Assembly (NCBI GenBank): GCA_048941265.1
Contig: JBHLNT010000092.1
Coordinates: forward strand, 1 to 15,953
Direction of reading: 5' to 3'
DNA: 15,953 nucleotides
DNA from: Promethearchaeota archaeon
Lineage (GTDB): Archaea; Asgardarchaeota; Lokiarchaeia; Sigyniarchaeales; SOKP01
Positions 1-14,916 of this stretch are shown here, one piece after another (within the stretch, counting starts at the first letter, position 1; every line of letters starts with the position of its first letter). A model generated the notes under the pieces. The model was not told the origin of the DNA. It saw only the letters and a list, made by a program, of their open reading frames with translations, and did not search any database. The position numbers and the translations under genes were made by a program.

Positions 1-176
1 GGATCATCTAGCTCTGGAACTTTTCTTCCCATTTTTGGAAATGAGTTTAATTTTTCAACTTTTTCTTGCAGTTGTTCGAAAAATAATGATGCATATTGAG
101 GTGAGTCTTGAGCAATATAATCAATAATTTCAAGCAAATCGTTTTCTGCTATGGCTGCCCATTCTATTTCGACCAT
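1..176 (-). CDS. ParE/RelE-family type II toxin, runs off the window at its 3' end (not in the ORF track)
   Basis: Manual translation from ATG at 176: MVEIEWAAIAENDLLEIIDYIAQDSPQYASLFFEQLQEKVEKLNSFPKMGRKVPELDD. This is the typical ParE pattern (W...A..DL..I..YIA.D.P..A...L..FP.MGR.VPE). It overlaps the upstream small gene by 13 nt. Confidence 0.9.
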   Translation of the reverse strand, partial: MVEIEWAAIAENDLLEIIDYIAQDSPQYASLFFEQLQEKVEKLNSFPKMGRKVPELDD

Positions 177-364
177 TTTTCTAGTCTCTTCTTAACATTA
201 TCCATAACTTGTTCATGAGGAATTGATTTGCCTTGCTCAACTTCTTGAAGACCTATTAATATTTTTTTTTTAACATAAAGATGATACATGATATCATCTA
301 AAGTAGCGTCTTCAGGTAACTTTTTTATTAGGTCAATGACTTCTTCTTTTAGATTTGTAGTCAT
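164..364 (-). CDS. Antitoxin of the ParE/RelE pair
   Basis: 66 aa, immediately upstream of and overlapping the toxin. LPEDATLDDIMYHLYV...GL.EVEQGK.IPHEQV resembles small antitoxins that precede ParE. Confidence 0.8.
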   Translation of the reverse strand: MTTNLKEEVIDLIKKLPEDATLDDIMYHLYVKKKILIGLQEVEQGKSIPHEQVMDNVKKRLEKWSK

Positions 365-542
365 AAGTTATCACTATTTAAATGGTTTTTTGTACTTTTA
401 TAATTTCTGATTTTATTCATTGTATCATATTCAATTTTATAATTAAATTATAGTATTTTAAAAAACCTATTATGAAGACGTTTTTTTGTTAGAGATAATA
501 ATAGATTGGTGAATAATTAATCCTATATTCTTTAAAAACCCA

Positions 543-577
543 TCAGAAGGAGGCAAGCACGGCGGGAGGGAAGTAAT
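543..577. repeat. GC-rich intergenic repeat, copy 1
   Basis: tcagaaggaggcaagcacggcgggagggaagtaat; 31/35 identical to 8972-9006. Confidence 0.85.
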
Positions 578-630
578 AGAGTAAATTACAACTTTTTTAT
601 AGTTTCTAATTATCCTTCCATTTTTTTTCA

Positions 631-1017
631 TTAAAAATCTTGATATTTAATTTTAGATAAATAAGGTTTAAATTCTCCAATACTCTTAAAATCTTTAATT
701 TTTTTTTTTATTAAAATAGCACCAGCTTCGTTTTTTGTGTATTCTTCAGGATCAAGCTCAGTATCTAAAATAGTTTTAGAGGGATCTATTTCTTGTGATT
801 CAATTAATCTTTCCATCACCTCTTTTTTAAAAGTAATAGTAATTAAAGCAGCTAAAATTTCTCCTTCCTTTCCAAATACCTTACCATCTCTATAACGCAG
901 ATTACCGTTAATTATTATATAGTTACCAGGATATATATCTTCATGTTCCATAATAGTATTCCAAACTTTTTCAAAATCATTTTTTGAATTTATAATATGT
1001 ATCCATCCGTATACCAA
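631..1017 (-). CDS. Hypothetical 128-aa protein, candidate cognate immunity protein for the Ubl-nuclease
   Basis: TTG start with GGTGA 6 nt upstream. It lies directly downstream of and co-oriented with 1100-2347. The function is inferred from position only. Confidence 0.6.
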   Translation of the reverse strand: MVYGWIHIINSKNDFEKVWNTIMEHEDIYPGNYIIINGNLRYRDGKVFGKEGEILAALITITFKKEVMERLIESQEIDPSKTILDTELDPEEYTKNEAGAILIKKKIKDFKSIGEFKPYLSKIKYQDF

Positions 1018-1099
1018 ATTTTTTCACCAATTAATTATATATGATTTCGATAACGCAAATTCTATTAATAAAATTATTTTTTAACATTTTTTTTTTGTA

Positions 1100-2347
1100 T
1101 TATAATTTTCTCCAATTTTTATATGGTACATCTTTTGTCTCTATTGTAATTCCAGTTAGTTCTTTAAATTTATTAAATTCAGCAATAATATAATTTTGTC
1201 TTTCATGAGGTTCTTTGCTGTATGGTACTTCAATTAAATAATAACCTTCTATATTTTTGTCTTTAAACATATTACGTTTAAAATTATCTCTTCGTAATAA
1301 TTCTTGCCATTTTTTATAAAGCAGTTCATATTCAGTAGAACCAGCTTCTAGATTAAATTGTCTCGAGACTGCTTTATAAGCTTCAAATCCTATTTCCTCC
1401 TTAGGATCATGTTGTTGACCTTGAAATTCTATTGCAAGTTTAATATAATTACCATTTTTATCTTTGATATTTAATTCAAAATAACCATCAACATGAACAG
1501 CATGATGGATTCTGCCTTCTAACTCTGGAAATATTTTTATAAGGCTGTGTTCTGTTTTATAATTACCTTCAATATAACCTAAATAATCAAAAACATATTT
1601 AGCAATAGCATTTGTAATTTTCTGATTAACTAATCGACTATCACATATCGGACACGCCCCTATATTTCTTTCAATATTATGACGTGTATTCTCCCACACA
1701 TGCCCGCATGGATCTCCATTCTTTTTAGCACCATGTTTCCATTCTAGAATTGCATATCTTTTTGGAACTCCATTTTTTAGTTTTTTTAAGGCTTGTTTAA
1801 ATTCAAATTCATCGGATATTAATATTAATCCTTTTTCTTCTGCTAAATTTAGAGCTTTATTATATTCTGCTAGTTCTTTTGAATCTAATATTGGGCGATT
1901 TAAAATTTTCGCCTGAGCGGCTTCAAAAGTATTAACACCATAGTGAGTTTGGAAGGATCTTTTAATTAATTCTTCATCTCCATCAAAAAGTTTAAATAAT
2001 TCTTCTTTCGTGAGACCTTCTTTGATCAATTTCTCAACTCTTTGTTTTTTGAATACGGGGGCAGAACCTGCTTGTTCACCTATTACCATAATAACATCAT
2101 CAGGTTTAAGGCGAAGTTCGGCAATTTTCATGGAGTTAGGTATCACTTTTCCGTTGATAATAAACTTATAATCTAAAATTTGGTTGAGTTCAAGTTCATT
2201 TATAATATCTTCCTTAATGTCTTCAAAGCTAGCTTTTGAATTTTCGATGGCGATTGCTCTTATTGCTTGACCTGGAGAAGCTCCTACAATTCTAAAATTA
2301 ATGGTTTTTCCATTGTTTTCGGATAGGAAATTTACCCTTCCATTCAC
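1100..2347 (-). CDS. Ubl-domain fusion with Zn-ribbon and PD-(D/E)xK (DUF559/Vsr-like) nuclease; candidate toxin
   Basis: GTG start with GGTGA 4 nt upstream. Residues 1-95 show a beta-grasp pattern (F.I.NGK.I...I.EL.L...D.I.VI.EQAGS). CGHVW...CPIC is a Zn ribbon. HVDGYFEL...LAIEFQGQQH...RDNFKR...LIEVPY are restriction-fold nuclease motifs. Confidence 0.75.
   Translation of the reverse strand: MNGRVNFLSENNGKTINFRIVGASPGQAIRAIAIENSKASFEDIKEDIINELELNQILDYKFIINGKVIPNSMKIAELRLKPDDVIMVIGEQAGSAPVFKKQRVEKLIKEGLTKEELFKLFDGDEELIKRSFQTHYGVNTFEAAQAKILNRPILDSKELAEYNKALNLAEEKGLILISDEFEFKQALKKLKNGVPKRYAILEWKHGAKKNGDPCGHVWENTRHNIERNIGACPICDSRLVNQKITNAIAKYVFDYLGYIEGNYKTEHSLIKIFPELEGRIHHAVHVDGYFELNIKDKNGNYIKLAIEFQGQQHDPKEEIGFEAYKAVSRQFNLEAGSTEYELLYKKWQELLRRDNFKRNMFKDKNIEGYYLIEVPYSKEPHERQNYIIAEFNKFKELTGITIETKDVPYKNWRKL
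2298..2336. repeat. 39-bp perfect direct repeat, copy 1 (candidate attL)
   Basis: ttaatggtttttccattgttttcggataggaaatttacc, identical to 13096-13134. Confidence 0.85.
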
Positions 2348-2370
2348 GTTTTCACCGGATTTCAGAGAGA

Positions 2371-2378
2371 TTTAAATA
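2371..2378. promoter_or_regulatory. Archaeal TATA box in the 72-bp divergent intergenic region
   Basis: TTTAAATA (TATTTAAA on the minus strand). The same octamer occurs in the paralogous intergenic region at 13169-13176. Confidence 0.55.
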
Positions 2379-2419
2379 CTTGTGTCCCGTTCATTTCGTA
2401 AAAAGCTATATGGAAAAAA

Positions 2420-2938
2420 ATGAGGAAGAAAATGAAAACAAAAGGAGAGAAGTACAATTATGTATACATGCAATTTGCGGTTTCTCCAAGTGAGAGAAAT
2501 TTGATAAAATCAATGGCAGAAAAGGAAAGATATAAAACGACTTCTGAATTTTTAAGAAGACTTATTTTTGATTATATCAGAAGAGAAGAGAATCCCGAAC
2601 TTATCAATGGTACCAATGATGGCAATTTAAATTCAATTATTTTAGAAGATATCTCAAAAAATATCAGAGAAGCTCTGAAAAACCAGGAAATCATACTGGA
2701 CCGGGAGGACGCATTTGAACAGATGAGAAAAATGGTAGTAAATATCCATAAACTCGTTGAGGCAGGTTCGTTAGAGGAAGAACGTAATATTATCACTCAG
2801 TTGTTAAAAGAACATAATTCTCTTACTATACATATGATTCAAGAAGAAACTGGATTACCCAAAGATGTAATCTTCAAAATTATTTCCGATATGAACATTT
2901 TTAAATTAACTACAACAGGGAGGTTTACCCTCCGATGA
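2420..2938 (+). CDS. Ribbon-helix-helix + coiled coil + winged-HTH DNA-binding protein
   Basis: N-terminal YMQFAVSPSERNLIKSMAEKERYKTTSEFLRRLIFDYI is CopG/RHH-like. C-terminal LTIHMIQEETGLPKDVIFKII...TTTGRF is wHTH-like. ATGA overlap with the integrase; paralog of 13208-13726. Confidence 0.75.
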   Translation: MRKKMKTKGEKYNYVYMQFAVSPSERNLIKSMAEKERYKTTSEFLRRLIFDYIRREENPELINGTNDGNLNSIILEDISKNIREALKNQEIILDREDAFEQMRKMVVNIHKLVEAGSLEEERNIITQLLKEHNSLTIHMIQEETGLPKDVIFKIISDMNIFKLTTTGRFTLR

Positions 2939-3849
2939 CTAAAGTCACCAATCAACAAATCATCGATCGTTATTTGGATAGGTTTAAACACTCCAAGCCA
3001 TCAGTAGCGTCTAGAAAATACTCACTTCAATATTTCTTCCAGGATCGGTATTTTGGCTATAAGGGTCATGTATTTGATATTAAAAAGCAGGATGTTATAG
3101 ATTACTTTGATTATTTGAATGACTTGGACACAATCTGCTTAGTAACCAAGGAACATAAATGGACTTATTTTAGAACATTTCTAAAATTTGTAATGGAGTA
3201 TTACGATGATTTTATCATTGTAATTCCCCATTATAGTATAAAGTGGAAACCGATTCATAAAAAACCTGATTCTAATAAAGATGTTGTGATGAGTAAAGAT
3301 GAAGTAAAACAAATTTTGGAACATTCATATCAGCATAATTACCAATATTACATCATGGTTCGTCTTTTAACAGAAACGGGGATGCGCCGTGGAGAGCTCC
3401 TCAGCATTAATACTCAAGATGTAGACGTTAAAAGAAGATTTATAGAAACCCAAGGAAAAACGGGAAGGAATGTTTATTATTATTCAATAGGACTAGCGAA
3501 GCATTTAACCATCTATTTAAAAGAGAGAATATTAAAGGATGTTCCCAATGAAGCACTATTTCTCTCAAAATATAAGGAAAGGTATTCACCCCGCTCTATA
3601 AATAATTATTTATCCAATTGTACGGACCGATTAAATATCAATAAGCGGATTTCAACCCACACCTTTAGGAGAACATTAAATACATTAAGAAAATTGATGG
3701 GATGTCCTAGTGAAGACCGTAAAATTCTATTATGTCATAAGGTCAATGACGTGAATTTCAGCTGTTATGTGAAGTTGAATTACAATGACTATATTAATCT
3801 CTATGATAAATGGAACCCCTACAAAAACTTATTTGAATCCAGTTCGTGA
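2935..3849 (+). CDS. Tyrosine recombinase/integrase (XerC/D-like fold)
   Basis: Full catalytic set visible: ETGMRRGEL (R), QGKTG (K), HTFRR (HxxR), LLCH (H), SCYVK (Y). 304 aa including an N-terminal core-binding region. Confidence 0.95.
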   Translation: MTKVTNQQIIDRYLDRFKHSKPSVASRKYSLQYFFQDRYFGYKGHVFDIKKQDVIDYFDYLNDLDTICLVTKEHKWTYFRTFLKFVMEYYDDFIIVIPHYSIKWKPIHKKPDSNKDVVMSKDEVKQILEHSYQHNYQYYIMVRLLTETGMRRGELLSINTQDVDVKRRFIETQGKTGRNVYYYSIGLAKHLTIYLKERILKDVPNEALFLSKYKERYSPRSINNYLSNCTDRLNINKRISTHTFRRTLNTLRKLMGCPSEDRKILLCHKVNDVNFSCYVKLNYNDYINLYDKWNPYKNLFESSS

Positions 3850-3868
3850 AACATCACTCTTTGCAAAC

Positions 3869-3887
3869 AGCGCCGGTATCCGGCGCT
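3869..3887. other. GC-rich hairpin downstream of integrase 1 (terminator or recombination-related)
   Basis: agcgccgg-tat-ccggcgct is a perfect 8-bp stem. A third arm, gcgccgga, lies at 3896-3903. Confidence 0.5.
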
Positions 3888-4063
3888 ACTCAAGGGCGCC
3901 GGAAAGTCCCACAATGATAAATGTAGGACAATATTAGTTCAATTATCTGGATTAAGTTATTCTCCGCACGTGTTAGTATTATATTATATATAATAAAATT
4001 CCGTATAAAAAAAATTAGGAGCGTTGGAGGATTCTATTTAATTTTTCGATCAAATTATAACCG

Positions 4064-4261
4064 TCAGGTTTGGGGATTATCGAAATATTCATCAATAAAA
4101 TGAGTTTTAGACTGCTTAATTATCTTCCATGCTTTAATTAGGTCTTTTTGTAGCCTCTTCCTCTGTAAGTTATCTTTTTTCAATTGAACCAATAATTTAG
4201 CTCGCTTTAAACGTTTCTGATCAAACCATTTTCTAAAGTTTTTTTTCTCTTCGTTGCTCAT
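4064..4261 (-). CDS. Small basic hypothetical protein
   Basis: 65 aa, ATG start, K/R-rich and helical; 23 nt downstream of 4285-4707. Confidence 0.55.
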   Translation of the reverse strand: MSNEEKKNFRKWFDQKRLKRAKLLVQLKKDNLQRKRLQKDLIKAWKIIKQSKTHFIDEYFDNPQT

Positions 4262-4284
4262 CGAAGTGTAATCTAAAATGTCTA

Positions 4285-4707
4285 TTAATCCCTCAACTCA
4301 AATTTGTAATCTGTACTGAAATCTCCTCCCAGCTTTTCCATAGTAAACTTATGTGTATTTAAATTTTCGAAATTAGACACTAAGAATTGGGCAAATTTCT
4401 GTGATGCTTTATTACCTAATTCCAAAAAACAAATATTATCACCTTTAATCGAGGGAATTCTTCCATGGTTCTTTTCATTTGTCATCTTAATATAATATAA
4501 TATTGTTCTAGTCGTAATCTCGAAGTCCATGAATTCAATGGCAAATTGCCATCTTGCACCTGTTAGTTTGCCATCATAAGTTTTTTCTATAAGCATTGGT
4601 GGTTGATTAATATCTAGAAGATGGAAGCTATATTTAATTCCACTAGAAATGGGGATGAAAATGCCATTTTCAATTTTTAAATCATTTAACTGCTTTAAAT
4701 ATTCCAT
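4285..4707 (-). CDS. Hypothetical protein, possibly a phage-type OB-fold ssDNA-binding protein
   Basis: 140 aa, beta-rich. C-terminal FTMEKLGGDFSTDYKF resembles the (R/K)xGxG..T.Y motif of gp32-like SSBs. AAAGGA lies upstream of the ATG. Confidence 0.45.
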   Translation of the reverse strand: MEYLKQLNDLKIENGIFIPISSGIKYSFHLLDINQPPMLIEKTYDGKLTGARWQFAIEFMDFEITTRTILYYIKMTNEKNHGRIPSIKGDNICFLELGNKASQKFAQFLVSNFENLNTHKFTMEKLGGDFSTDYKFELRD

Positions 4708-4778
4708 TATTCCTTTCTCCGATTTTTATTTTTTCTTTGTTCGATTGTAGTTATGATAAAATCTATTAATTTTATTAA

Positions 4779-4812
4779 TAGTACAAACTAATGTATTTAA
4801 CTTTTTGTACTA
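4779..4812. promoter_or_regulatory. Inverted repeat (operator-like) upstream of 4285-4707
   Basis: tagtacaaa-N16-tttgtacta; the spacer contains the TATA-like tatttaa. Confidence 0.45.
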
Positions 4813-5474
4813 CACAAGCCATGTAACTAATTTTAATTATGATTGCATAATGCTTTCCTTTTACAAAGTAAATAATCTAATGAATCCTTTTTGATAAAAC
4901 TGAACGGAAATGTAAATCTTTTGAGAATTGGTCTATTGATTCACGAAAATTGAATGTAGTGTAAATCTTAATTGCCGTACGAAAACAGTACTTCAAGAGA
5001 AATCTGTTGATCTCTATATAGAATTAACAAAACTCAAGTAGTATTTTAACTCGTAGTGTCAAAGAGCGTACTTAATCTCTCAAAAAGTGAATTTATTTTT
5101 GTGCGTACATTGTAGGGACAACTTCTTATAATATTAATTTCGGATGATAGGAGTTTCACGAAAAAAATGTTCTTTTTGAATTTTCACGTTTACATAAAGC
5201 ACGGAAAATTGGTTTTATTTAGCAATATTAACCCGATCTTGATTGCGAAGATTTTTAATAATCTTTTTTTTTGTTTATTATAATGTTATCAAAAATATAT
5301 CTCTTAATGAAATTAAGAAAAAAACATTGTTATATAAAAGATTATTATTTGAGTGAATGCTAACTTTTTGTGCTGATAATGTTTCAAATGTATGGAAAAA
5401 ATTTGAGGATACGAAATAAGTGAGCAAATGCTCTTTAATATAGAATTTAGAGAGGTATAAGGTGAAGAACAAAT

Positions 5475-6191
5475 ATGACTGAACCAGAGTCAAATAAGGA
5501 AGAAATGAGTATTGATTTAAATCCAGAATTCAGATTTATGATGACTATGAATTTAGATGTATTTTTTAAGTCATGTAAAGTCAACTTTTTTGTCGAAACG
5601 GCACGCGACCGATTCATAATATGGTATCAAACGCCGGACCGTCAAATTTACAGCCCTCTAATGATTACCTTTAAACAAGTCCTAAGAGGTGATTTAACTC
5701 ACAAGCATTGCGATTTGAGGTACAAAATAAGGGGTAATTTGATTTCGATATTCAAGAAATGGTATCCCGAAATGAACATTAAAAAATATCAGAATGAAAT
5801 CGTGGAAAAATTCGCATTTCAAATTAATAATTTAGCCCTTAATTTTATTGAAGCTAGACAACAAATTGAACTTGAACTCGGACCGCTTCCCCAAGCTTTT
5901 TCAACTTTTCTAGAAATTAATTTGCCCAAAACGAGCGAAAGATTAGATATCATTGATAGGAACGCGCTAAAAATGTACAATGAAAAAGCCCAAGCCAACC
6001 GATGGTTAAAAATTAGAGATCTTGATGAGTTGGCATATTATATATCACAAAAACTCCCCGAATATAAATGTAGCGCCGCCCGAAAGGTCTATCGAGACAT
6101 AAATGAAATTAGGCAAAGAAGAAAGATAGTTATGTGCGATTTTCAATCCATCGCCAATGAAATCAGCAATAGATTAGATCAATTAAAGTAG
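5475..6191 (+). CDS. Hypothetical 238-aa protein
   Basis: ATG with GGTGA upstream (aaggtgaagaacaaatATG). No family recognised. Confidence 0.7.
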   Translation: MTEPESNKEEMSIDLNPEFRFMMTMNLDVFFKSCKVNFFVETARDRFIIWYQTPDRQIYSPLMITFKQVLRGDLTHKHCDLRYKIRGNLISIFKKWYPEMNIKKYQNEIVEKFAFQINNLALNFIEARQQIELELGPLPQAFSTFLEINLPKTSERLDIIDRNALKMYNEKAQANRWLKIRDLDELAYYISQKLPEYKCSAARKVYRDINEIRQRRKIVMCDFQSIANEISNRLDQLK

Positions 6192-6239
6192 TGATCCTCC
6201 CATCTTATCATGGAATTAGTGAAGAAAACCAAGAAATGT

Positions 6240-6412
6240 AAATGGCGTTTTAAAACAAAAAAATTAAAAAAAAATTGCGGGAATAACATTTCATTTTTTC
6301 AACAAAAAATCATTACTCATACAAAAAATTAAAAAAATTGTTATCATTAAAAAATACCCTAGATGTGATATTTTCCATTCTTTTTTTTTTTCTTAACTTG
6401 AAAACGCCATTT
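6240..6412. repeat. 173-bp segment bounded by 12-bp perfect inverted repeats
   Basis: aaatggcgtttt (6240-6251) and aaaacgccattt (6401-6412), with an internal A-tract direct repeat at 6255-6277 and 6321-6340. Confidence 0.55.
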
Positions 6413-6531
6413 TAAACTAGAGGGCTTGGTTCATTATTCTAATCTAGTTACTGTTATTTGATAAAAAGATAAAATACATATTTTTGAATCATTTTTTATA
6501 TATTGAAAATAAATTCTACTTGTGAATAATA

Positions 6532-7194
6532 ATGAAAATTGAATCTTATGAACCATTCCACATTGGATCTAAATTCATTTACTATGTCGATAAAGCTCAT
6601 TTACTAGCAAAATTATATGAGTACTACGTAACTAATAAGGATAAAGGTTTTGAATTATATTCTGATATTCCTAGAGGAGATCAGCCTTTTTTACCCATTC
6701 TTAATATCTTATCAAATCCTAAAGAAAAATTAACCCTTCAAATGAATCTTACTGCTAACGCATTAAATGTTATTGGTAATGATCCAAAAAAGGTAGTAGA
6801 ATTCTTTATTAAATTAATGAGAAATTTACCAGATTTAGGTTTTGAATTAGATTCAACATTTACTTTTTATGAAATTCTTACAAATATAATATTATTATTA
6901 GACGCAGAAGATAAGACCCCTGTTGAGATATTTAATAAATTTTCTTCAAATATTTTTGAAAACCTAGAAGATCTTCCAAATTTAAATGTAAATTATATTA
7001 GATTTTCAGACGAACTAGTATCAAAAGAAAGTGACGAGCGATTTAATTTTGAAATAATCCCTAATCAAACTAGTCCAAATAAGAGAATTATTTTAAAAAT
7101 TCTTAAAAGAGTTAAAGATTATCAAGAATTAATAAAGTTCCAAGAAAGATTAAATAATATAGTACAAAAGATTTTTGAAAAGTTGGTGAAATAA
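6532..7194 (+). CDS. Hypothetical 220-aa alpha/beta protein, first gene of a three-gene operon
   Basis: ATG start; its stop abuts the next ATG (TAAATG). Only vaguely reminiscent of TIGR04255-like proteins. Confidence 0.7.
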   Translation: MKIESYEPFHIGSKFIYYVDKAHLLAKLYEYYVTNKDKGFELYSDIPRGDQPFLPILNILSNPKEKLTLQMNLTANALNVIGNDPKKVVEFFIKLMRNLPDLGFELDSTFTFYEILTNIILLLDAEDKTPVEIFNKFSSNIFENLEDLPNLNVNYIRFSDELVSKESDERFNFEIIPNQTSPNKRIILKILKRVKDYQELIKFQERLNNIVQKIFEKLVK

Positions 7195-7932
7195 ATGGAT
7201 ATCTGCCAATTTGACGAACCTCTAATTGCAACAAACCAGAAACCCAATCCTCTAATTGTTAAGCACGAGTCGAGTACATCGACTCGAAAAGATTTTCAAT
7301 ATCAGAATAATACTTCATCAACGACTCTTTCCTTTGAATTAGAAACTAGTGGTATAAGAGAAGATCCAATACCTACTACTGCCTCATTTGACTATAAAGA
7401 ATTTACAAGTAATTTGGAACCAATCATAACATCCATGTACAATATAAATGCGATCCTAAAACCATTACTACAGATACAATGTGCTTTAGAACCTTTAATA
7501 GAGATACAGAGATCGCTAAGACCTATGCTTGAAATGCAGAGGCAATTAGAACCGTTAATAGAAATAAATTCATTTCTTGAACCATTGATTAGGATTCAAA
7601 CATCAATCGAAAATCTTATAAAATTATCACATTTAGGAATTGATGAAACTAATGATTCTCAGGAAAATGAAGTACTTGAAAAGACTTCAAAAATTAATTT
7701 GGAGCCAATGATCAAAGATCAGCAGCACTTTAAAAATTTTTATGATCGTGAAAAATGGGTTGAAAACCAAAGAAAAAACTACCCTAAAGAACTGATTGCA
7801 TATATCAAAAAGAATGGAGAATTTGTGTTAATTGCTCATTCTAAAATTGAAAAAGAACTTCTTAAACAAATAGATATGCTCTTTGAAAAAAATGTTATTG
7901 ATCAAGAAGATATTATTTACTTTGATAGTTAA
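7195..7932 (+). CDS. Protein with 10-aa tandem repeats and a DUF5678-like C-terminus
   Basis: L(E/K/R)P(L/M)xxIQxx repeats with a 30-bp period from 7456. C-terminal WVENQRKNYPKELIAY...LIAHS resembles the small domains that precede clan AA proteases. Confidence 0.65.
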   Translation: MDICQFDEPLIATNQKPNPLIVKHESSTSTRKDFQYQNNTSSTTLSFELETSGIREDPIPTTASFDYKEFTSNLEPIITSMYNINAILKPLLQIQCALEPLIEIQRSLRPMLEMQRQLEPLIEINSFLEPLIRIQTSIENLIKLSHLGIDETNDSQENEVLEKTSKINLEPMIKDQQHFKNFYDREKWVENQRKNYPKELIAYIKKNGEFVLIAHSKIEKELLKQIDMLFEKNVIDQEDIIYFDS

Positions 7933-7945
7933 GGTTAATTAAAGA

Positions 7946-8449
7946 ATGGAAATTGATATTGATAAGTTAAAAGAAAGTTCTTTGGAATTTAATAAAAAAT
8001 TACGGCTTCCTATAAATACATTAAATATAAAAATCGAAGATAATTGGAAGAATTTTACAAATTTCATATCTGAATTGATTGAAATTGATTCAGGTCGCAA
8101 ATTTAAGACTGAATTAAGTATGGTCCTAATCGACACGGGTAATGAAGCTAATTTCATTGTAATGAGTGCTTATTATCTTAATACCTTTAAATCTAAAATT
8201 AAGGAAATCGATTTAGAACAAAAAATAATAGAAGATTTTGTAGGTAATGAAAGATTGACTGAGGTAACAACTGAAAGTTTTGAATTTAAGATTTTTAATG
8301 CTCTTTTTAAATCGAAAATTGGTTTTACTTACCAAACGAATGTTAATGCATTGGATATCATTAATGTAGGGATTAATGCTATTCGACAATATCTTAATTT
8401 GATTTTTTTAGCTGGTTCTAAAAATTACTATTATTGTTCTAATATCTGA
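7946..8449 (+). CDS. Retropepsin-like (clan AA) aspartyl protease
   Basis: Catalytic motif VLIDTG and a C-terminal hydrophobic-Gly motif IINVGINAIRQY. Confidence 0.7.
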   Translation: MEIDIDKLKESSLEFNKKLRLPINTLNIKIEDNWKNFTNFISELIEIDSGRKFKTELSMVLIDTGNEANFIVMSAYYLNTFKSKIKEIDLEQKIIEDFVGNERLTEVTTESFEFKIFNALFKSKIGFTYQTNVNALDIINVGINAIRQYLNLIFLAGSKNYYYCSNI

Positions 8450-8476
8450 TTGGAACCAAGAAATCCCTTAGAAGAA

Positions 8477-8504
8477 TCAGAAAAAGGAAAGCATAGTGGG
8501 AGGG
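8477..8504. repeat. GC-rich intergenic repeat, copy 2 (degenerate)
   Basis: tcagaaaaaggaaagcatagtgggaggg; 22/28 identical to 543-570. Confidence 0.65.
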
Positions 8505-8563
8505 TGTCCATAAATTAAAATAAAGGAGTATTTTAAATTAGCATATACTTAAATTTTAAAAAT

Positions 8564-8905
8564 CTAAAAATCAATTTCCATTTCTCTATATTGAAAGTAT
8601 TTTTCAAGGAATAGATCTAAACAACAAATTACTATTTTTCCTTTAGTATCTTCATTGATATTAAAATATTCTTGGTTGTTATCTAATAATGGGATTATTA
8701 TTTTATTTTTGATATAATTTAAAAACTCATCTGAAAAGAAATGATCTACTACTATCCTTTTATTATAATATTGCTTAATGAAATCATTGATAATATCCTC
8801 TTGATTTTTAGTTGGATTTTCTTCAATATTATCGATAAAACGCTCAATGAAACTGAAAATGCGTTCCCTAACAGGTTCTTCAAATTCTGGATGTAATTTT
8901 TTCAA
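8564..8905 (-). CDS. Acidic helical hypothetical protein, candidate orphan immunity cassette
   Basis: 113 aa, TTG start with GAGATGA upstream, flanked on both sides by the GC-rich repeat. Confidence 0.6.
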   Translation of the reverse strand: MKKLHPEFEEPVRERIFSFIERFIDNIEENPTKNQEDIINDFIKQYYNKRIVVDHFFSDEFLNYIKNKIIIPLLDNNQEYFNINEDTKGKIVICCLDLFLEKYFQYREMEIDF

Positions 8906-8971
8906 TTTTTCATCTCTAGTTATTATTATATTGTTTTAAATAATACAACAGATAAGATAAATTAATATTTT

Positions 8972-9006
8972 TCAGTTGGAGGCAAGCACGGTGGGAGGGA
9001 GGTAAT
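8972..9006. repeat. GC-rich intergenic repeat, copy 3
   Basis: tcagttggaggcaagcacggtgggagggaggtaat. Confidence 0.85.
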
Positions 9007-9023
9007 GGAAAGATAAGATGTAA

Positions 9024-9836
9024 TTAGTAATAAAAAAATCCCACGGACCTTTCAAACTCATTAAGCATTTGAATTACTTCGGCAGAAAATTTCTTCTTTA
9101 ACTCAGGATTGAATTCTAAAAGTTTTAATTTTTTTAGATTCTTCAAAGTTAAGGGTAAGTTAGATATTTTATTATATCCAAAATTAAATTTCTGTAAGTT
9201 CTTCAAATTTCCTATTGAATCATGAATTAACTCGATATTATTATAAGAAATATTAAACACTTCTAGGTTTTCTAAGTTCCAAATTGAAGAAGGTAAGTCG
9301 TTTAAATTGTTATACATCAAATTTAATTTTTTTAAAGCTTTCAAATTGCCAATTGATTCAGGGATTTTTTTTAAATTATTATAAGATAGATCTAAGTATT
9401 GGAGATTTTCTAATTGATTTATTGATTCTGGTAGGAATTCTAATTTATTACGTTCTAAAATTAATGCTTTTAAATTTTTAAATTTGGATATATCTTGGGG
9501 GATAATATCAATTTGATTTCCGGATATATCTAAGACAGTAAGATCTTTTAATTCAAGGATTTCATCAATAAAGCGGTTTAATTCAAGAGATACTAAAACT
9601 AAATGTTTTATTCTCCCGTCTCTAACATTTATTCCATTTAGAAGCCCTTGACCTATGATTTCAAATTCTATTTCTCTTTCATCCTTTCCAGATTCAATTT
9701 CATATAAATATAAATCATTTGGATTCTGAAATTCATTCTTTTTTAATAAGACAATATTTCTTCCAATTTTTTTTTCCAAAATTTTCAGAATTTCATAATC
9801 CCTTTCATTTAATAAAATATTCATAAAATTTTTCAT
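9024..9836 (-). CDS. Leucine-rich repeat protein (23-aa repeats)
   Basis: About 6-7 LxxLxLxxNxLxxLPxSIxNL repeats. The start is probably the ATG at 9836 (GAGATGG upstream) rather than 9869. Confidence 0.9.
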   Translation of the reverse strand: MKNFMNILLNERDYEILKILEKKIGRNIVLLKKNEFQNPNDLYLYEIESGKDEREIEFEIIGQGLLNGINVRDGRIKHLVLVSLELNRFIDEILELKDLTVLDISGNQIDIIPQDISKFKNLKALILERNKLEFLPESINQLENLQYLDLSYNNLKKIPESIGNLKALKKLNLMYNNLNDLPSSIWNLENLEVFNISYNNIELIHDSIGNLKNLQKFNFGYNKISNLPLTLKNLKKLKLLEFNPELKKKFSAEVIQMLNEFERSVGFFYY

Positions 9837-10006
9837 TTTTACCATCTCTATATGTAGCTTAGTAATCAATAATCTATTAAGAACCTATTATTTTTATTAA
9901 AAAAAACTGTTTATACTTCTCGTACATTAATTACTCTAGGTATCTTTATTTGTGGATAATATTGTTCAAATAAATCTAAAGAATACAGGCAAGAATCACA
10001 GAGCAA

Positions 10007-10026
10007 GCAAGCACGGCGGGGAGGGA
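10007..10026. repeat. GC-rich intergenic repeat, copy 4
   Basis: gcaagcacggcggggaggga, the core of copy 1 with one extra G. Confidence 0.8.
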
Positions 10027-10131
10027 AATATAGAATAAATATAGAAAAGAGTGAATTATTATTAAAAATTTAATATTTATTCAGGATTCATCAAAAAATG
10101 AGTATTGAAAGAATTGAAATCTGCTAAAAAA

Positions 10132-11469
10132 TTATAAATCATAATAGTGACGCCACCATTTTAATCTATCCTCTTCATTCTCCAAATCTGGATTTAAATA
10201 AAAGTATTTTTCATAAGGTTCTAACTCTTCTTTTGGAATTAGGGGATCATTATAAAAATCTTTTCTCAACACAATATATTGAATACTTTCAAGTACCTCC
10301 AAACCCTTAGTGCTTGTAATGAGGTTTCCACATAAATAAATTTCCTCAAGATTGTGAAGGGCTTCTAAACCAGAAATTTCCTTGATTTGATTATGGGTGA
10401 GATCTAATTTTTCTAAATCCTTTAAATTCTCTAATCCTTTTATCTCTTTTATCTTGTTATGGTCAAGAATTAAATATTTTAGGTTAGAAAGTGCGTTTAA
10501 ACCCTTGATTTCATTAATTTCATTTTCTCCAAGATCTAAAGAAACTAGTTTTACACACTTATCTAATTTACCAATCTCTGAAATATTATTCCCAACTAAT
10601 AATAAAGAATTGAGCTCTGATAGCGTTTCAAGCCCACTTATTTCATTAATTTGATTATAATGCAAGTATAAAAATTCTAAGAGATTCTGAGATTCAAGCC
10701 CTTGAATCTTTTTAATACTATTATTTCCAATTCTAAGATCTTTTAGGTTAATAAGAGTTTTTAATCCCTTGAGTTCTTTAATTCGGTTATTATTCAAGTA
10801 AAATTCCCTTAAATTAGTTAAATCTTCGATATTCTTGATTTCCTCAATTTGATTATGGCTAAGGTGTAATTCTCTTAACTTCTTCAAGTGTTGGATTCCC
10901 TTAATTTGTGTGATGTTATTGTGGCTTAAATATAAGAATTCTAATTGATTTAGATTTTCAAGTCCCTTGATCTCCTTAATTTGATTATAATTAAAAGATA
11001 TTTTTTCTAAATTCCTGAGATTTTCAAGTCCCTTAATTTCCTCGATTTTATTTCCAGATAGTTCTAAAATTGTTAAGTTTTTAAGATTTTCAAGTCCGCT
11101 AATATTTTTAACCTGATTATTATTTAAACTCAGATACTTAAGCTTGGAGAGATTTTCAATTCCAGTCATCTCCTCAATTTTATTATTATATAAGTACAAA
11201 TATTCTAAATTTTTAAGGTTTTCAAATCCTTTAATTCTTTTTATCATATTATCATTTAAGGATAAACTTTTAAGATTCACAAGTGTATCGAGACATTGTA
11301 CTTTTGAAATGTGATTGTGATGAAGACTTAAGCCCTTTAATTCCTCAAGTGATTCCAAACCCTCAATTTCGGAAATGGTCTTAATCTCCCTATCATTTAG
11401 AAGCAATTCACCTTGATTAACATATACCTTGTGTCCTTTTATAGTTACATAATCTCTATTTCTTTCCAT
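10132..11469 (-). CDS. SDS22/internalin-like LRR protein (22-aa repeats), candidate cognate immunity protein
   Basis: Roughly 16-17 LxxLxLxxNxIxEIKGLENL repeats. ATG with GAGATG upstream; 65 nt downstream of the Ubl-deaminase gene. Confidence 0.92.
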   Translation of the reverse strand: MERNRDYVTIKGHKVYVNQGELLLNDREIKTISEIEGLESLEELKGLSLHHNHISKVQCLDTLVNLKSLSLNDNMIKRIKGFENLKNLEYLYLYNNKIEEMTGIENLSKLKYLSLNNNQVKNISGLENLKNLTILELSGNKIEEIKGLENLRNLEKISFNYNQIKEIKGLENLNQLEFLYLSHNNITQIKGIQHLKKLRELHLSHNQIEEIKNIEDLTNLREFYLNNNRIKELKGLKTLINLKDLRIGNNSIKKIQGLESQNLLEFLYLHYNQINEISGLETLSELNSLLLVGNNISEIGKLDKCVKLVSLDLGENEINEIKGLNALSNLKYLILDHNKIKEIKGLENLKDLEKLDLTHNQIKEISGLEALHNLEEIYLCGNLITSTKGLEVLESIQYIVLRKDFYNDPLIPKEELEPYEKYFYLNPDLENEEDRLKWWRHYYDL

Positions 11470-11534
11470 TTAAATTACATCTCGAGAATATTTTATTCTT
11501 AAAACGCTTACATATTATAAAAATCTTTTTTACT

Positions 11535-13136
11535 CTATAGGAACATGTAATAAAAACTAATTTCAGGATACATCTCTCTAAGATTATTCTCAAATTTATT
11601 AATATTTTCATTGCAATTAGGACAAAAAGACTCCTCTGATGTAAGAACAATGGTTCCTGCGTCTATATCATCCATCAGCAAGTTCTCTAAATTAATAATA
11701 GATATTCTCTCTCCACATAGCGGATTAAAATATCTATCATCGGGCTGTTCTTCTAAGCTGTTTATGATATATTCTTTTCCTGTATCTGGATCTTTAGCCA
11801 ACCATTCAACGGGATATCTTTTTGAATAGTAGTTCGAATAAATATATACTAAACCCATTCTCGTTGCATCAGGGACGCGCAATCCAGGAATGGGAGTTTT
11901 ACTAGAACGAGTTACCGTAATTCCTAAATTAACAGAACCTCCTGGTTTTTCAAATTCAAAATAGGTTAGAGTGAATTTTCCACCTATCAAATTTCCCCTA
12001 TATCCTCTCATAATTTTATCATTGGTTACTTTATCTCTATCTTTTAATTGTTTGACGACATCATCGTTAGCCCCAAAATTAAAATTATCCCTAAGAAATT
12101 CATTTAAATCATTTATCATGGTTTGTTTGGAATTCTTATCGCCAATAAGATTTATAATTTGGGCACGAGCACCAGGGTAATCATAGATATCCTGAAATTC
12201 AATTCGTCCATCTTGATTTCTCGTTTCTTTCAAAAGTTTTTTAAAATGATTATCAATAAGTTTTCCGACCTTCCCTGGTAAATTCTCTTTGAAATCTAGT
12301 ACGATACTTTTTAAGTAAGATAATTCATAAACTCCAAGTTCTGTGGGATTTTTAAGAATATCCATAATATTAAAATCTGTTGCACTTTGTATGGCACCAT
12401 CTTCAGTTTTTATAAATTTCCTGAAACCTTCGTTTCTAAGCTCGTTATTCAATTCAATAAAACTAACGAAATTCTCATCATTTGCATCTGAATATAAAAA
12501 GGCTATTTCCTTAAACATTTCAAATAATTCTCTTGAATTATCAGAAATTAATTCTTGTTCAATAAGTAAATCTGTGATTTTATCTATAACTTGTTGTTTT
12601 TGCCCTTCAATATTACCTAGATCAAACCCTAGTCTCCTAGCCATAGTACTATCGATCTTACAAATATGATACATTACTTCAAGGATTAGATTGAGTTTAC
12701 CTACATCATTTGCATCCTGGAATCTGTTTATAAAGCCATTTTCTGAATTACTCCAATAATTTCTATCTCCTGTTATTTCTCTGAAAAAGTTGGTAATTCC
12801 ATATCTATAATCAAATATTGAATTTATCTCATAAGCAATAACTCCAAGTTCGCCTCCTTCGCCTAGGTGTTTGGAGATTACAGTAATGATATCCTTTTTA
12901 AGATTAAAACCGAGTTCTTTCAGCGTTTTTACATCAGTAATTAATTTTCCGTTGAAAATTATTTCAATATCTAAGAGGGGGTTGAGTTTAAGCTGATTTT
13001 GAATTTCATTCTTGATATCTTTTATATTGGCTTTAGAATTTTCGATGGTTATAAGCTTGATAGCTTGGTCCGGAGCAACTCCTAATTGTCTAATTTTAAT
13101 GGTTTTTCCATTGTTTTCGGATAGGAAATTTACCAT
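11535..13136 (-). CDS. Ubl-domain fusion with helical linker and C-terminal Zn-dependent deaminase-like toxin domain
   Basis: Residues 1-95 are about 53% identical (46/86 by manual alignment) to the Ubl of 1100-2347 and end in LGEGG. The C-terminus LCGERISI...GTIVLTSEESFCPNC...INKF...MYPEISF fits the toxin-deaminase signature. Confidence 0.7.
   Translation of the reverse strand: MVNFLSENNGKTIKIRQLGVAPDQAIKLITIENSKANIKDIKNEIQNQLKLNPLLDIEIIFNGKLITDVKTLKELGFNLKKDIITVISKHLGEGGELGVIAYEINSIFDYRYGITNFFREITGDRNYWSNSENGFINRFQDANDVGKLNLILEVMYHICKIDSTMARRLGFDLGNIEGQKQQVIDKITDLLIEQELISDNSRELFEMFKEIAFLYSDANDENFVSFIELNNELRNEGFRKFIKTEDGAIQSATDFNIMDILKNPTELGVYELSYLKSIVLDFKENLPGKVGKLIDNHFKKLLKETRNQDGRIEFQDIYDYPGARAQIINLIGDKNSKQTMINDLNEFLRDNFNFGANDDVVKQLKDRDKVTNDKIMRGYRGNLIGGKFTLTYFEFEKPGGSVNLGITVTRSSKTPIPGLRVPDATRMGLVYIYSNYYSKRYPVEWLAKDPDTGKEYIINSLEEQPDDRYFNPLCGERISIINLENLLMDDIDAGTIVLTSEESFCPNCNENINKFENNLREMYPEISFYYMFL
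13096..13134. repeat. 39-bp perfect direct repeat, copy 2 (candidate attR)
   Basis: Identical to 2298-2336; offset 10,798 bp. Confidence 0.85.
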
Positions 13137-13207: not shown

Positions 13208-13726
13208 GTGATTAATATGAAAGAAAAACAAAAGTCAACCAAAAGCAGCTACGAATACAGATACATTCAATTCGTTGTCAGTCCGAAAGAAAAGGAAAAG
13301 ATTGAGGAATTTATGACAAAGGAAAATTTTAAGACACAGAGCGATTTTATTAGGAGGATTATCTTTACGCACATTCGCAAACAAGAAAACCCTGAACTAT
13401 TCATCTCAAGCAATGATTCAAATATAAATCCAATTGTACTTGAAAGGATTGCAAAAAATACAAAAGAAATTCAAGAACTCATATCACAGAGAGAAGATTC
13501 ATTAGAAGAAATGAGACAAATGGTTTTAAATTTACATAAGCTCGCCGAACAAAACGCCTTAGCAAAAGAAAGAGAAATTATTATAAAACTATTAGAAAAA
13601 CACACTTCATTATCACTTAGACAAATTGAAGAAGAAACTGGTTTAGCCGAAGATGTAGTCTTTAAAATCATATCCGATATGAATATATTTAAAATTACAA
13701 CATCAGGTAGATTCGCATTACGATAA
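13208..13726 (+). CDS. RHH + wHTH DNA-binding protein, paralog of 2420-2938
   Basis: YIQFVVSPKEKEKI...KTQSDFIRRIIF (RHH). C-terminal EEETGLAEDVVFKIISDMNIFKITTSGRFALR is nearly identical to copy 1. The start may be the ATG at 13217. Confidence 0.75.
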   Translation: MINMKEKQKSTKSSYEYRYIQFVVSPKEKEKIEEFMTKENFKTQSDFIRRIIFTHIRKQENPELFISSNDSNINPIVLERIAKNTKEIQELISQREDSLEEMRQMVLNLHKLAEQNALAKEREIIIKLLEKHTSLSLRQIEEETGLAEDVVFKIISDMNIFKITTSGRFALR

Positions 13727-14634
13727 CTAATCAGCAAATTATTGACAGGTATTTACAGAGGTATAAGCATTCAAAATACTCAGTATATTCCCGCAAATAT
13801 GCACTCGGCTATTTTTTTGAATCAAGATACTTTGGTTTTGAAGATCATGTATTTAATATAAAGAAACGTGATGCAATTGATTATTTCGACTATTTAAACC
13901 ATAAAGAAGACCTCTGTCTTGTAAGTAAAATGAATAAGTGGAATTATTTTAGATCATTTCTCCAATTTTGCATGGAATATTACGATCTGGTAGTGGTTAT
14001 CCCTAAATATTCCGTGAACTGGAAGCCACTTCACAAAGAAGCTGATTCTAACAAAGATGTGGTAATGACTAAAGAAGAAGTAAAACGGATACTTAAGCAC
14101 AATTTAAACTATAATTATTATTACTATATTCTTTTAAGAATATTAACCGAAACAGGCATGCGTGTTGGGGAATTTCTCAGCATTGACATTGAAGATGTGA
14201 ACGTGGATAAACGATATGTTGAAACTCAAGGGAAGACAGGAAGGAAGATCTACTACTTCTCAAACGGATTAGCCAAACACTTAGCAATCTATCTGAAAGA
14301 ACGGGAATTGAAAGACTGTGAATGCAAAGCGTTGTTCCTTTCCATCCAGCGACAAAGATACAGACGCAGGAGCATTAATAATTATATACAAAGATGCGTT
14401 AGGAAAATAGGGATCGACAAGCGGATTTCATGCCATACTTTTAGACGAACCTTAAACACGCAGAGGAAAAAGATGGGATGCCCAAAAGAGGATAGGAAAA
14501 TCCTACTCTGTCATAAAGTCAGCGATGTCAATTTCCAATGCTATGTAAAGCTCAACTATGATGATTACATCCGCTTATATGACAAATGGAATCCGTATAA
14601 AAACATCTTAGACGGTAGATCTCGGAATATTTAG
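13723..14634 (+). CDS. Tyrosine recombinase, paralog of 2935-3849; full-length frame begins at ATA 13723
   Basis: The frame is open for 69 codons upstream of ATG 13930 (ITNQQIIDRYLQRYKHSKYSVYSRKYAL...) and matches the N-terminus of integrase 1. Catalytic ETGMR, GKTG, HTFRR, LLCH and CY are intact. Confidence 0.9.
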   Translation: MTNQQIIDRYLQRYKHSKYSVYSRKYALGYFFESRYFGFEDHVFNIKKRDAIDYFDYLNHKEDLCLVSKMNKWNYFRSFLQFCMEYYDLVVVIPKYSVNWKPLHKEADSNKDVVMTKEEVKRILKHNLNYNYYYYILLRILTETGMRVGEFLSIDIEDVNVDKRYVETQGKTGRKIYYFSNGLAKHLAIYLKERELKDCECKALFLSIQRQRYRRRSINNYIQRCVRKIGIDKRISCHTFRRTLNTQRKKMGCPKEDRKILLCHKVSDVNFQCYVKLNYDDYIRLYDKWNPYKNILDGRSRNI

Positions 14635-14916
14635 TTTTTATTAAAATACAGCTATATATTATTATTTTTTCTTTTTTTATTGCTATTTATTATATCAGTC
14701 TATTTTAGAAGTGACTAATGTAATATAACTGTGAGCTGAACCATACCCCCCTTCTTCGATTTTCTGTTCAAAAAGCATTCTTTTTGTAGATGGGGGTGAC
14801 TGAGCTGGTCTGTGGATTGATGGCATTTTTTTTAAGAAAAAGTGTATTAAAATTCATTAATTATAAAATTCCGCTAATATTTTTAAAAAAAAAAGGAAAA
14901 TAAAGATTTTAATCTG

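Follow-up and report, generated by a model that had tools for sequence, protein, structure and literature searches.

An asymmetric G-rich repeat bounds single-gene cassettes and integrase elements in a Loki-type Asgard archaeon: a candidate recombination joint

Polymorphic toxin loci of the contact-dependent inhibition (CDI) and Rhs type combine a conserved N-terminus with variable C-terminal domains, followed by a partner gene and by further partner-like genes downstream. Three described mobile systems come closest to the locus reported here: the tandem accretion of integrative and conjugative elements (ICEs) of the ICESt1/ICESt3 type together with cis-mobilisable elements (CIMEs) (PMC5704250); integrons together with clusters of attC sites lacking integron integrases (CALINs); and the tycheposons of Prochlorococcus, in which repeated integration builds and remodels islands and tandem junctions are observed (bioRxiv 10.1101/2020.12.28.424599). 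Integrons with canonical attC sites are reported in Archaea and as enriched in Asgard metagenome-assembled genomes (MAGs) (PMC9668308). The present analysis concerns a G-rich repeat, hereafter R, in the window, i.e. the whole stretch of DNA analysed, which is an entire 15,953-bp contig (C31) of a 5.0-Mb, 361-contig, 91% complete genome of a Loki-type Asgard archaeon (loci, genomes and contigs bear the prefixes L, G and C). R recurs past the stops of accessory genes, lies at both ends of a complete integrase element and marks breakpoints between genomes; it is probably a joint at which genetic units are exchanged, whatever the recombination mechanism.

The repeat is real. On the plus strand of the AT-rich window (22-37% GC in 400-nt windows), its 18-nt core occurs at 553-570 and 8982-8999 without mismatch, at 10007-10024 with two mismatches and at 8487-8504 with three, i.e. 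four copies in 16 kb against a chance expectation of zero from 200 dinucleotide-preserving shuffles. A repeat finder reported a 38-nt family at 543-580, 8477-8514, 8972-9009 and 9997-10034 (66-87% identity to copy 1), and a search with a six-copy profile, run on the window and on all 5.0 Mb of the genome, found only the four R copies (E 1.8e-11 to 5.6e-06). These searches bear out what the original prediction had read from the letters of this stretch, namely four copies in one orientation, no further copy in the window, none between a ubiquitin-like (Ubl) fusion gene and its first partner (positions 1018-1099 and 11470-11534) and each copy past a minus-strand stop, at distances of 54, 60, 18 and 106 nt when reckoned from its coordinates. 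The layout calls for one correction, as copy 2 also follows, by 26-28 nt, the stop of a convergent plus-strand gene (7946-8449). The genome-wide search that had been proposed as a check found the motif not to be scattered, the four clear copies all lying at this locus. The sole R-like sequence of this genome off the window's contig is a degenerate, shortened copy (C140:9857-9896, E 0.021) beside a VapBC-like pair (10019-10666); a match to the core on C78 shows no alignment beyond the core.

Beyond this genome, the R type was found among 100 other genomes of the family only in G052, of the same genus (three copies, arranged gene-R-gene-R), apart from one doubtful match elsewhere. With IntA, the Xer-like tyrosine recombinase of the first module of the window, as query, 11 loci were retrieved, which carry a sister site, R', of consensus (CC)TACTTTTTTAGGAGGGGGCACCACGGGGGAGGGAGGTAA; its alignment to R requires two single-base indels and a few substitutions. 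R' was sought as an exact pattern in large collections and with up to two mismatches in the 100 family genomes. The exact pattern gave 26 loci on 21 contigs of the 185,579-species genome_contigs collection, without any bacterial record, the contig titles reading Promethearchaeota, Promethearchaeia, Hermodarchaeota or uncultured archaeon; among 34 matching metagenome contigs, 31 were AT-rich and profile-confirmed and three (58-63% GC) were chance matches. In the family, 27 of the 100 genomes bear one to six copies each, a reversed control pattern giving no match, and five further genomes bear three to eight copies each, clustered and co-oriented within contigs. One R and two R' matches in viral contigs were dismissed as chance (60-67% GC contigs), no relative of the integrase was found in viral_contigs, and the 18-nt R core matched genome_contigs 43 times, i.e. 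one G052 contig and 42 single matches in bacterial records. In G052 (L008), the homologue of the window's 128-aa partner gene is followed by R; in G101 (L144 2580-2966), a genome of another genus, it is followed by R'. As judged by these pattern and profile searches, R belongs to a family of asymmetric G-rich sites, ~37 nt long, that turned up in no organisms other than Loki-type Asgard archaea, and a literature search, with supplementary files outside its reach, returned no description of an R or R' site. One copy from the window's genus (L145 2672-2701, genome G044) joins the CACCAC of R' with the CGGCGGGAGGG of R, and could be a recombinant of the two site types or an intermediate form.

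The anatomy of the site was profiled over 67 distinct R' copies at positions around the core. Conservation extends from -15 to +21 with sharp edges and drops to background level on either side; the adjoining genes are unrelated. On the G strand, outside the positions set by the search pattern, a T-run occupies -14 to -10 (42-56 of 67 copies), AGGAGGGG occupies -8 to -1 (46-63 of 67) and GGTAA occupies +17 to +21 (46-64 of 67, the T at +19 in 46), beyond which follows a purine-rich stretch of ~20 nt where C is nearly absent (in no more than 5 of 67 copies). From its letters, the G-rich half can be read as a near mirror repeat, GGAGGGGG-CACCAC-GGGGGAGG, and also as four GG(G) runs with one-base loops. 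No hairpin emerged from eight folds of the four window copies on both strands (-0.9 to -3.4 kcal/mol; z -0.58 to +1.06 against shuffles), and the repeat finder listed no inverted repeats at the copies. RYYYAAC/GTTRRRY ends are absent from the four window copies and from the 67-copy profile, and the repeat is indeed, as first described, non-palindromic and devoid of attC-type ends. Neither a tRNA nor an Rfam match was obtained at the window copies, at L067, L084, L085 or at the other loci examined, nor did RNA structure or covariation point to an RNA motif. A stop codon stands at one fixed C-strand offset in 48 of 70 R' copies (26 TAA, 20 TGA, 2 TAG); the frames that end there are short (median 21, maximum 101 codons), and a coding role for this stop found no support. 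A resemblance of the R' left edge, where the same bases (-10 to -8) give on the G strand a pyrimidine run followed by YAG, to a splice acceptor was set aside as coincidence, with no 5' partner and no intron-like context.

The window consists of two paralogous modules ~10.8 kb apart, each with a ribbon-helix-helix (RHH; NikA-like)/winged-helix protein and an Xer-like tyrosine recombinase on the plus strand and a divergent Ubl-fusion gene with its partner on the minus strand. The order runs ParE/antitoxin - R1 - [partner A, Ubl-A, RHH, IntA, six genes without family] - R2 - 113-aa gene - R3 - 281-aa leucine-rich repeat (LRR) gene - R4 - [LRR partner, Ubl-B, RHH, IntB, P-loop protein] - contig end (Table 1). 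R brackets an entire 7.9-kb integrase element (539-8517) plus two one-gene units; element B runs off the contig, its right-hand end lying beyond the window. Co-oriented sites likewise enclose an integrase element in L081 (site 111-155, Int 2925-3833, site 7372-7416) and on the L073/L087 contig, where the site flanks integrase elements three times; in L062 and L082 a site follows the integrase at a distance of ~5 kb. These bracketed integrase elements measure 7-11 kb. Integrase-less segments between sites comprise the window intervals 8517-8969 and 9011-9995, a VapBC cassette in L085, L076 and L075 and a toxin-antitoxin (TA) cassette in L084 and L072. The initial description of R as punctuating single-gene cassettes downstream of toxin genes is thus apt for two units of the window and too narrow for the rest, as the repeat also brackets whole integrase elements (window 539-8517, L081, L073).

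The same position rule holds across loci. Among 43 copies with called neighbours, 33 have a gene tail on the 3' side of the G strand, 31 of these 33 at 4-111 nt (median ~44), and the C-rich strand is the mRNA sense of the gene preceding the site. On the opposite side, 24 copies face the start region of the next co-oriented gene at 57-765 nt, and 17 of 41 face a convergent gene's tail (11 of the 17 at 9-47 nt). Neighbouring sites are co-oriented in 22 of 23 pairs, at spacings of 480-8430 nt. The neighbouring genes encode PIN/VapBC and MazE-type pairs, ParE, LRR proteins, DUF2695 partners, AbiJ, SIR2 and an MmeI-type enzyme, as well as large proteins with Ubl- or S24-like heads; a scan of 129 proteins encoded within 4 kb of the sites found no other recombinase family. 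A promoter role was rejected, given that the next start lies 57-765 nt off and that the 17 of 41 copies facing a convergent gene have no downstream gene.

The sites are breakpoints between genomes. One VapBC cassette (a 138-aa PIN protein and a 76-aa gene) recurs in L085, L076, L075 and L068 at 84-88% nucleotide identity, in neighbourhoods that all differ (a proteasome gene, an LRR gene, a deacetylase fragment and genes without assignment); its pairwise identity averages ~0.9 between the sites and falls to 0.4-0.5 beyond them, it retains a conserved promoter-like region of its own, and it has a decayed left site in L075 and none in L068. A second TA cassette, common to L072 and L084, terminates at the site in both, and L079 and L082 have the 2.8 kb of host DNA before the site in common; past the site, one continues with a VapC tail and the other with an integrase element. 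When 75 loci were compared all against all, 28 of the 125 internal ends of homology blocks fell within 40 nt of a site, positions that make up 1.8% of bases; the block-end pairs are non-independent, one cassette in four genomes giving six pairs. The window itself offers one such end, as its positions 537-845 match G052 L008 1485-1797 (69.5%) in a block that starts at R1, weak similarity continuing for ~55 nt further before the contents diverge. The comparison of cassette content between relatives, which had been suggested as a check, finds breakpoints coinciding with the repeat.

In the reading favoured here, accessory genes would be stored as units stacked head to tail, each consisting of a single gene or a few genes and an asymmetric G-rich site of ~37-40 nt placed tens of nt past the last stop, with the G-rich strand antisense to the gene of the unit. 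Such units would range from single immunity-like or LRR genes through TA pairs and defence genes to whole 7-11-kb elements, the large ones carrying the RHH/winged-helix protein, the Xer-like tyrosine recombinase and a putatively toxin-like Ubl-fusion gene with its partner. Recombination inside the site would insert, delete and exchange units. Integrase elements most likely enter an existing site by site-specific recombination and leave a site at each end (tandem accretion), and integrase-less units may be decayed or cis-/trans-mobilised, CIME-like derivatives, the outcome being an integron-like array. We infer that the enzyme is the linked recombinase acting with the RHH protein and that the reaction is site-specific rather than homologous. 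The complete proposal, in which the linked Xer-like recombinase drives an integron-like cassette system with tandem accretion and R is its recombination joint, seems to us nearly, though not quite, an even prospect.

Several observations weigh against this complete proposal. Scored at E<=1e-30 over the 100 genomes, R' and the integrase family occur together in six, the integrase only in six, R' only in 21 and neither in 67, i.e. 21 of the 27 R'-bearing genomes are without this integrase family; the complete chromosome G101 has three R' copies, no such integrase and, of the RHH gene, only a truncated form. Stop codons occur in several integrase copies, and L154, L057 and L058 have the integrase and no site in 8-15 kb of sequence. 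IntB is closer to the integrases of R' genomes (72-74%) than to IntA (68%), and the type of site does not, therefore, track the type of integrase. In G103 (L084), ParE and VapBC genes enclosed by two sites lie between a pair of hdr operons, and none of the 11 relatives has a site at the orthologous locus (nhmmer E<=1), which argues that the site arrived with the insert and that no target pre-existed at the G103 locus. Three of these 11 are clean empty sites, with the hdr operons adjacent across a ~375-nt spacer, which in L084 is replaced by a 2.2-kb insert (9422-11645) with one site lying 28 nt from its right-hand breakpoint. (A comparison of the G101 proteasome locus with eight relatives was uninformative, as synteny stops right after the gene and the relatives' neighbouring gene was not found in G101.) Other conserved segments, i.e. 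the RHH-Int core and the start of the Ubl-fusion gene, also bound mosaic blocks, which fits homologous exchange, and in four of five public runs (assembled contigs only) neither an excision circle nor an excision joint was found at any R copy; the joints reported for these runs lie in AT-rich repeats, with sides of 21-34 nt. The pieces of run X2 leave a gap between 8476 and 9000, with a depth of 2.98 in the bin 8513-9044 against 9.22 and 21 in the adjacent bins, a hint only, as no contig joins across the gap. Finally, R shows neither dyad symmetry nor a hairpin on either strand, and absence of dyad symmetry is unusual for the core of a tyrosine-recombinase site. Of the original idea of a recombination site that accretes cassettes, the joint itself is strengthened by the same cassette in different neighbourhoods and by the enrichment of block ends, and the role of the integrases is weakened by the 21 of 27 genomes and the empty sites. 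The epithet integron-like keeps its force for the co-oriented array with a site after each cassette and loses it for the attC fold, the attC ends and IntI.

The most serious alternative is that R is a portable insulator or terminator linker carried by each cassette, which doubles as a homology patch for homologous recombination and needs no dedicated recombinase; we regard this as possible, if doubtful. It sits well with the fixed place of the site just past stops in 33 of 43 copies, with its position between two convergent tails in 17 of 41 (11 at 9-47 nt), with the empty sites lacking R, with the lack of the integrase in most R' genomes and with mosaic boundaries at other conserved segments. 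As a tentative mechanism, on the unlikely side in our judgement, a U-tract followed by a hard-to-melt G-rich block (quadruplex- or triplex-prone, or protein-bound) would halt RNA polymerase from either side, and the T-run of the G strand on one flank and the pyrimidine-/U-rich tract on the sense strand of the gene on the other are in keeping with it. However, richness in GC would not by itself hold ~30 near-invariant positions beside unrelated genes across genera, copies are few (one to six per genome in the family sample, three to eight in the five further genomes, four plus one weak in the window's own genome) and do not stand at most operon ends, no hairpin is present, the sense strand of the gene has an A-run and no U-run after the site, and 37 nt is short for homologous recombination. 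A promoter version of the linker fails on the distances and convergent tails given above and on the promoter-like region that the VapBC cassette keeps for itself. A role confined to RNA, in which the C-rich transcript strand would act as a 3'-untranslated-region element in stability, processing or translation control of toxin, antitoxin and immunity genes, with no part in DNA rearrangement, appears improbable. The C-rich strand always lies in the sense of the upstream gene, CCUCC occurs in it two or three times and resembles the 3' end of 16S rRNA, and genes of TA pairs need balanced expression; nevertheless, such an element leaves unexplained why homology blocks end at the site and why whole integrase elements are bracketed by it, it has no structure, covariation or Rfam match, and pyrimidine-/U-rich tracts precede the site.

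Two further readings would tie R to classical integration, and both fare badly. If R were an att scar, i.e. the duplicated 3' end of a tRNA, of another RNA gene or of a protein gene targeted by the integrase, one might cite the 45%-identical integrase relative directly after tRNA-Gly(UCC) in L160 and the fixed C-strand stop of 48 of 70 R' copies with its TAA/TGA alternation. Against this stand the lack of a tRNA or Rfam match at any copy examined, the shortness of the frames ending at that stop, the single-base indels between R and R', which would shift any reading frame, and the absence of a full-length gene ending in the site among the genomes searched; the scar reading appears very improbable and, on these comparisons, largely refuted. 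That R is a divergent attC site and that IntA and IntB are integron integrases is, in turn, hardly credible and, on the defining sequence features tested, refuted. The integrase does diverge from a co-oriented array with a site after each cassette and TA-rich cargo, and canonical-attC integrons are reported as enriched in Asgard MAGs (PMC9668308). But the copies have no folded single-strand structure, no inverted repeats and no RYYYAAC/GTTRRRY ends, and the integron-integrase model TIGR02249 scores IntA at 42.8 bits and IntB at 49.4 bits where its cut-off is 265, the match being limited to residues 101-199. Against structures of the Protein Data Bank (PDB), XerA is matched at E 4e-14 and IntI4 at E 6.7e-4, and the XerA model NF040815 (80.4 and 90.4 bits against a cut-off of 220) shows that the integrase is not XerA.

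Table 1. Coordinates of the R copies and of the genes and other features of the window
Feature	Position	Strand	Remarks
R1	539..583	+ (G-rich strand on +)	48-54 nt past stop of 128-aa partner gene; left boundary of element A
R2, degenerate	8475..8517	+	right boundary of element A; 47-60 nt past stop of 113-aa minus-strand gene
R3	8969..9011	+	13-18 nt past stop of 281-aa LRR gene
R4, one extra G	9995..10042	+	90-106 nt past stop of 445-aa LRR partner; left boundary of element B
ParE toxin (3-176, cut by contig end) and putative antitoxin (164-364)	3..364	-	Pfam ParE_toxin E 9e-10; left of R1
128-aa partner of Ubl-fusion A	631..1017	-	
Ubl-fusion protein A, 415 aa	1100..2347	-	N-terminal ubiquitin-like part; C-terminus nuclease-like (lead only)
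RHH (NikA-like)/winged-helix protein; IntA, Xer-like tyrosine recombinase	2420-2938; 2935-3849	+	conserved core of element A
Cargo of element A	4064..8449	minus: 65, 140 aa; plus: 238, 220, 245, 167 aa	all without family
One-gene cassette R2-R3, 113 aa	8564..8905	-	
One-gene cassette R3-R4, 281-aa LRR protein	9024..9869	-	
LRR partner (445 aa); Ubl-fusion protein B	10132-11469; 11535-13136	-	element B; C-terminus of B deaminase-like (lead only)
RHH protein B (13208-13726) and IntB	13208..14634	+	element B
Conserved ~200-nt non-coding stretch after Int	14635.. (to ~14832)		conserved in eight loci
Gene of ~500-aa P-loop protein, 3' part	14979-15953	-	cut by contig end

The proteins of the two modules deserve separate comment. 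IntA and IntB are 68% identical; the IntB frame comprises 307 codons without a stop and is open from 13711, with ATA where IntA has ATG, and its first ATG/GTG/TTG in the region 13708-13935 is the ATG at 13930, so the IntB gene may be inactive or have an unconventional start. The Ubl-fusion proteins A and B share ~50% identity over their first ~95 residues and none beyond. The Ubl assignment is weak (Pfam E 0.0016; PDB E 0.08-0.5), and the language-model look-alikes of the C-termini, treble-clef/DUF723/DUF559 nuclease-like for A (0.94) and toxin-deaminase-like for B (0.85), serve as leads only; from these weak Ubl matches and leads we infer the label "toxin" for the Ubl-fusion genes. The description of the one-gene units as orphan immunity cassettes is plausible, its basis being a 40%-identical homologue of the 113-aa gene directly after a Ubl-fusion gene in L058 and the resemblance of the 281-aa LRR gene to the LRR partner of the second Ubl-fusion gene. 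A PADLOC search of 13 window proteins gave no match at E<=0.001 and one weak match at E 0.0034. Toxin-like proteins with ubiquitin-like heads would merit separate study.

Further features of the elements were recorded alongside. A non-coding stretch of ~200-230 nt after the integrase is conserved in eight loci (82-90% within one genome), namely the window (14635-14832), L081 (3834-4046), L073 (1520-1734 and 13965-14163), L056, L062, L082 and L058; it has no convincing fold, the sequence after IntA differs, and it may serve as a regulatory region or an origin, or be a site belonging to the element itself. In several elements the integrase is followed by a P-loop protein of ~490-505 aa (GTGKS/T, no Pfam family; 40-86% identity), encoded in the window, in L081 (4190-5665), in L087 (6140-7657) and in L066 (3031-4503); it may act in replication or packaging of the element. 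Element A contains, after IntA, a GC-rich island (3863-3914) with a perfect 7-bp palindrome (GCGCCGG TAT CCGGCGC), unrelated to R, and, between the 238-aa and 220-aa genes, a 36-nt inverted repeat (6240-6275/6377-6412; 78% complementary, 101 nt apart). Among more distant relatives, a 45%-identical RHH-integrase pair lies ~140 nt after the tRNA-Gly(UCC) of L160 (10454-10525); at the same host site in L146, a solo R' lies ~270 nt after what is apparently the same tRNA with an insert, for which ARAGORN made no call. No direct repeats were found around two distant integrase relatives (G025, G096).

The 20-nt motif provides a simple handle for finding such accessory genes in Asgard metagenomes. If the recombinase reading holds, the known substrates of tyrosine recombinases would gain a site that is neither palindromic nor hairpin-forming; even if R were only a linker, it would be a sharply defined regulatory element in organisms with almost no known transcription signals. 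A broader and more speculative view, to which we give limited credence, is that of a gene-capture platform peculiar to Loki-type Asgard archaea, an integron in function but not in build, comprising a duplex, non-palindromic 37-bp G-quadruplex- or triplex-prone site and an Xer-like recombinase with an RHH/winged-helix partner. One and the same reaction of this platform may move recombinase elements and integrase-less one-gene cassettes, giving rise to arrays of toxin, immunity, TA and defence genes.

Comparison with the described systems places the R loci between several of them. Two candidates were discarded: Aloposons, which are marked by giant proteins and tRNA targets (PMC8813620), and the archaeal XerA/dif system, given that the R site has no dyad and that NF040815 stays below its cut-off. 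From CDI/Rhs loci, the R loci differ in that their orphans have no toxin-coding remnant, the joint is non-coding and integrases reside in the locus. Tycheposons resemble the R system in their small cargo elements, lineage-specific tyrosine recombinase and single kind of site; they differ in their tRNA targets, partial tRNA copies and nutrient-uptake cargo, whereas R involves no tRNA and accompanies conflict genes (bioRxiv 10.1101/2020.12.28.424599). Integrons and CALINs share with R the short co-oriented cassettes, the site after each of them, the TA-rich cargo, a site that is similar within a lineage and many arrays without a nearby integrase (PMC9668308). Unlike theirs, the R site is a 37-nt asymmetric G-rich duplex without a hairpin; the IntI hallmark is missing from the recombinase, whose gene sits within a bracketed unit instead of beside attI, and the cassettes appear to keep their promoters. 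The accretion of ICESt1/ICESt3-type elements with CIMEs likewise has integrase-bearing and integrase-less segments head to tail, the same co-oriented site at each joint and decayed integrases (PMC5704250). R differs from this accretion in being neither a tRNA nor a host gene end and in being missing from empty sites; its units go down to one 113-aa gene with the site fixed after the last gene, its hosts are archaeal and conjugation genes are absent (PMC5704250). None of the three, ICE/CIME accretion, integrons/CALINs or tycheposons, uses an R-like site.

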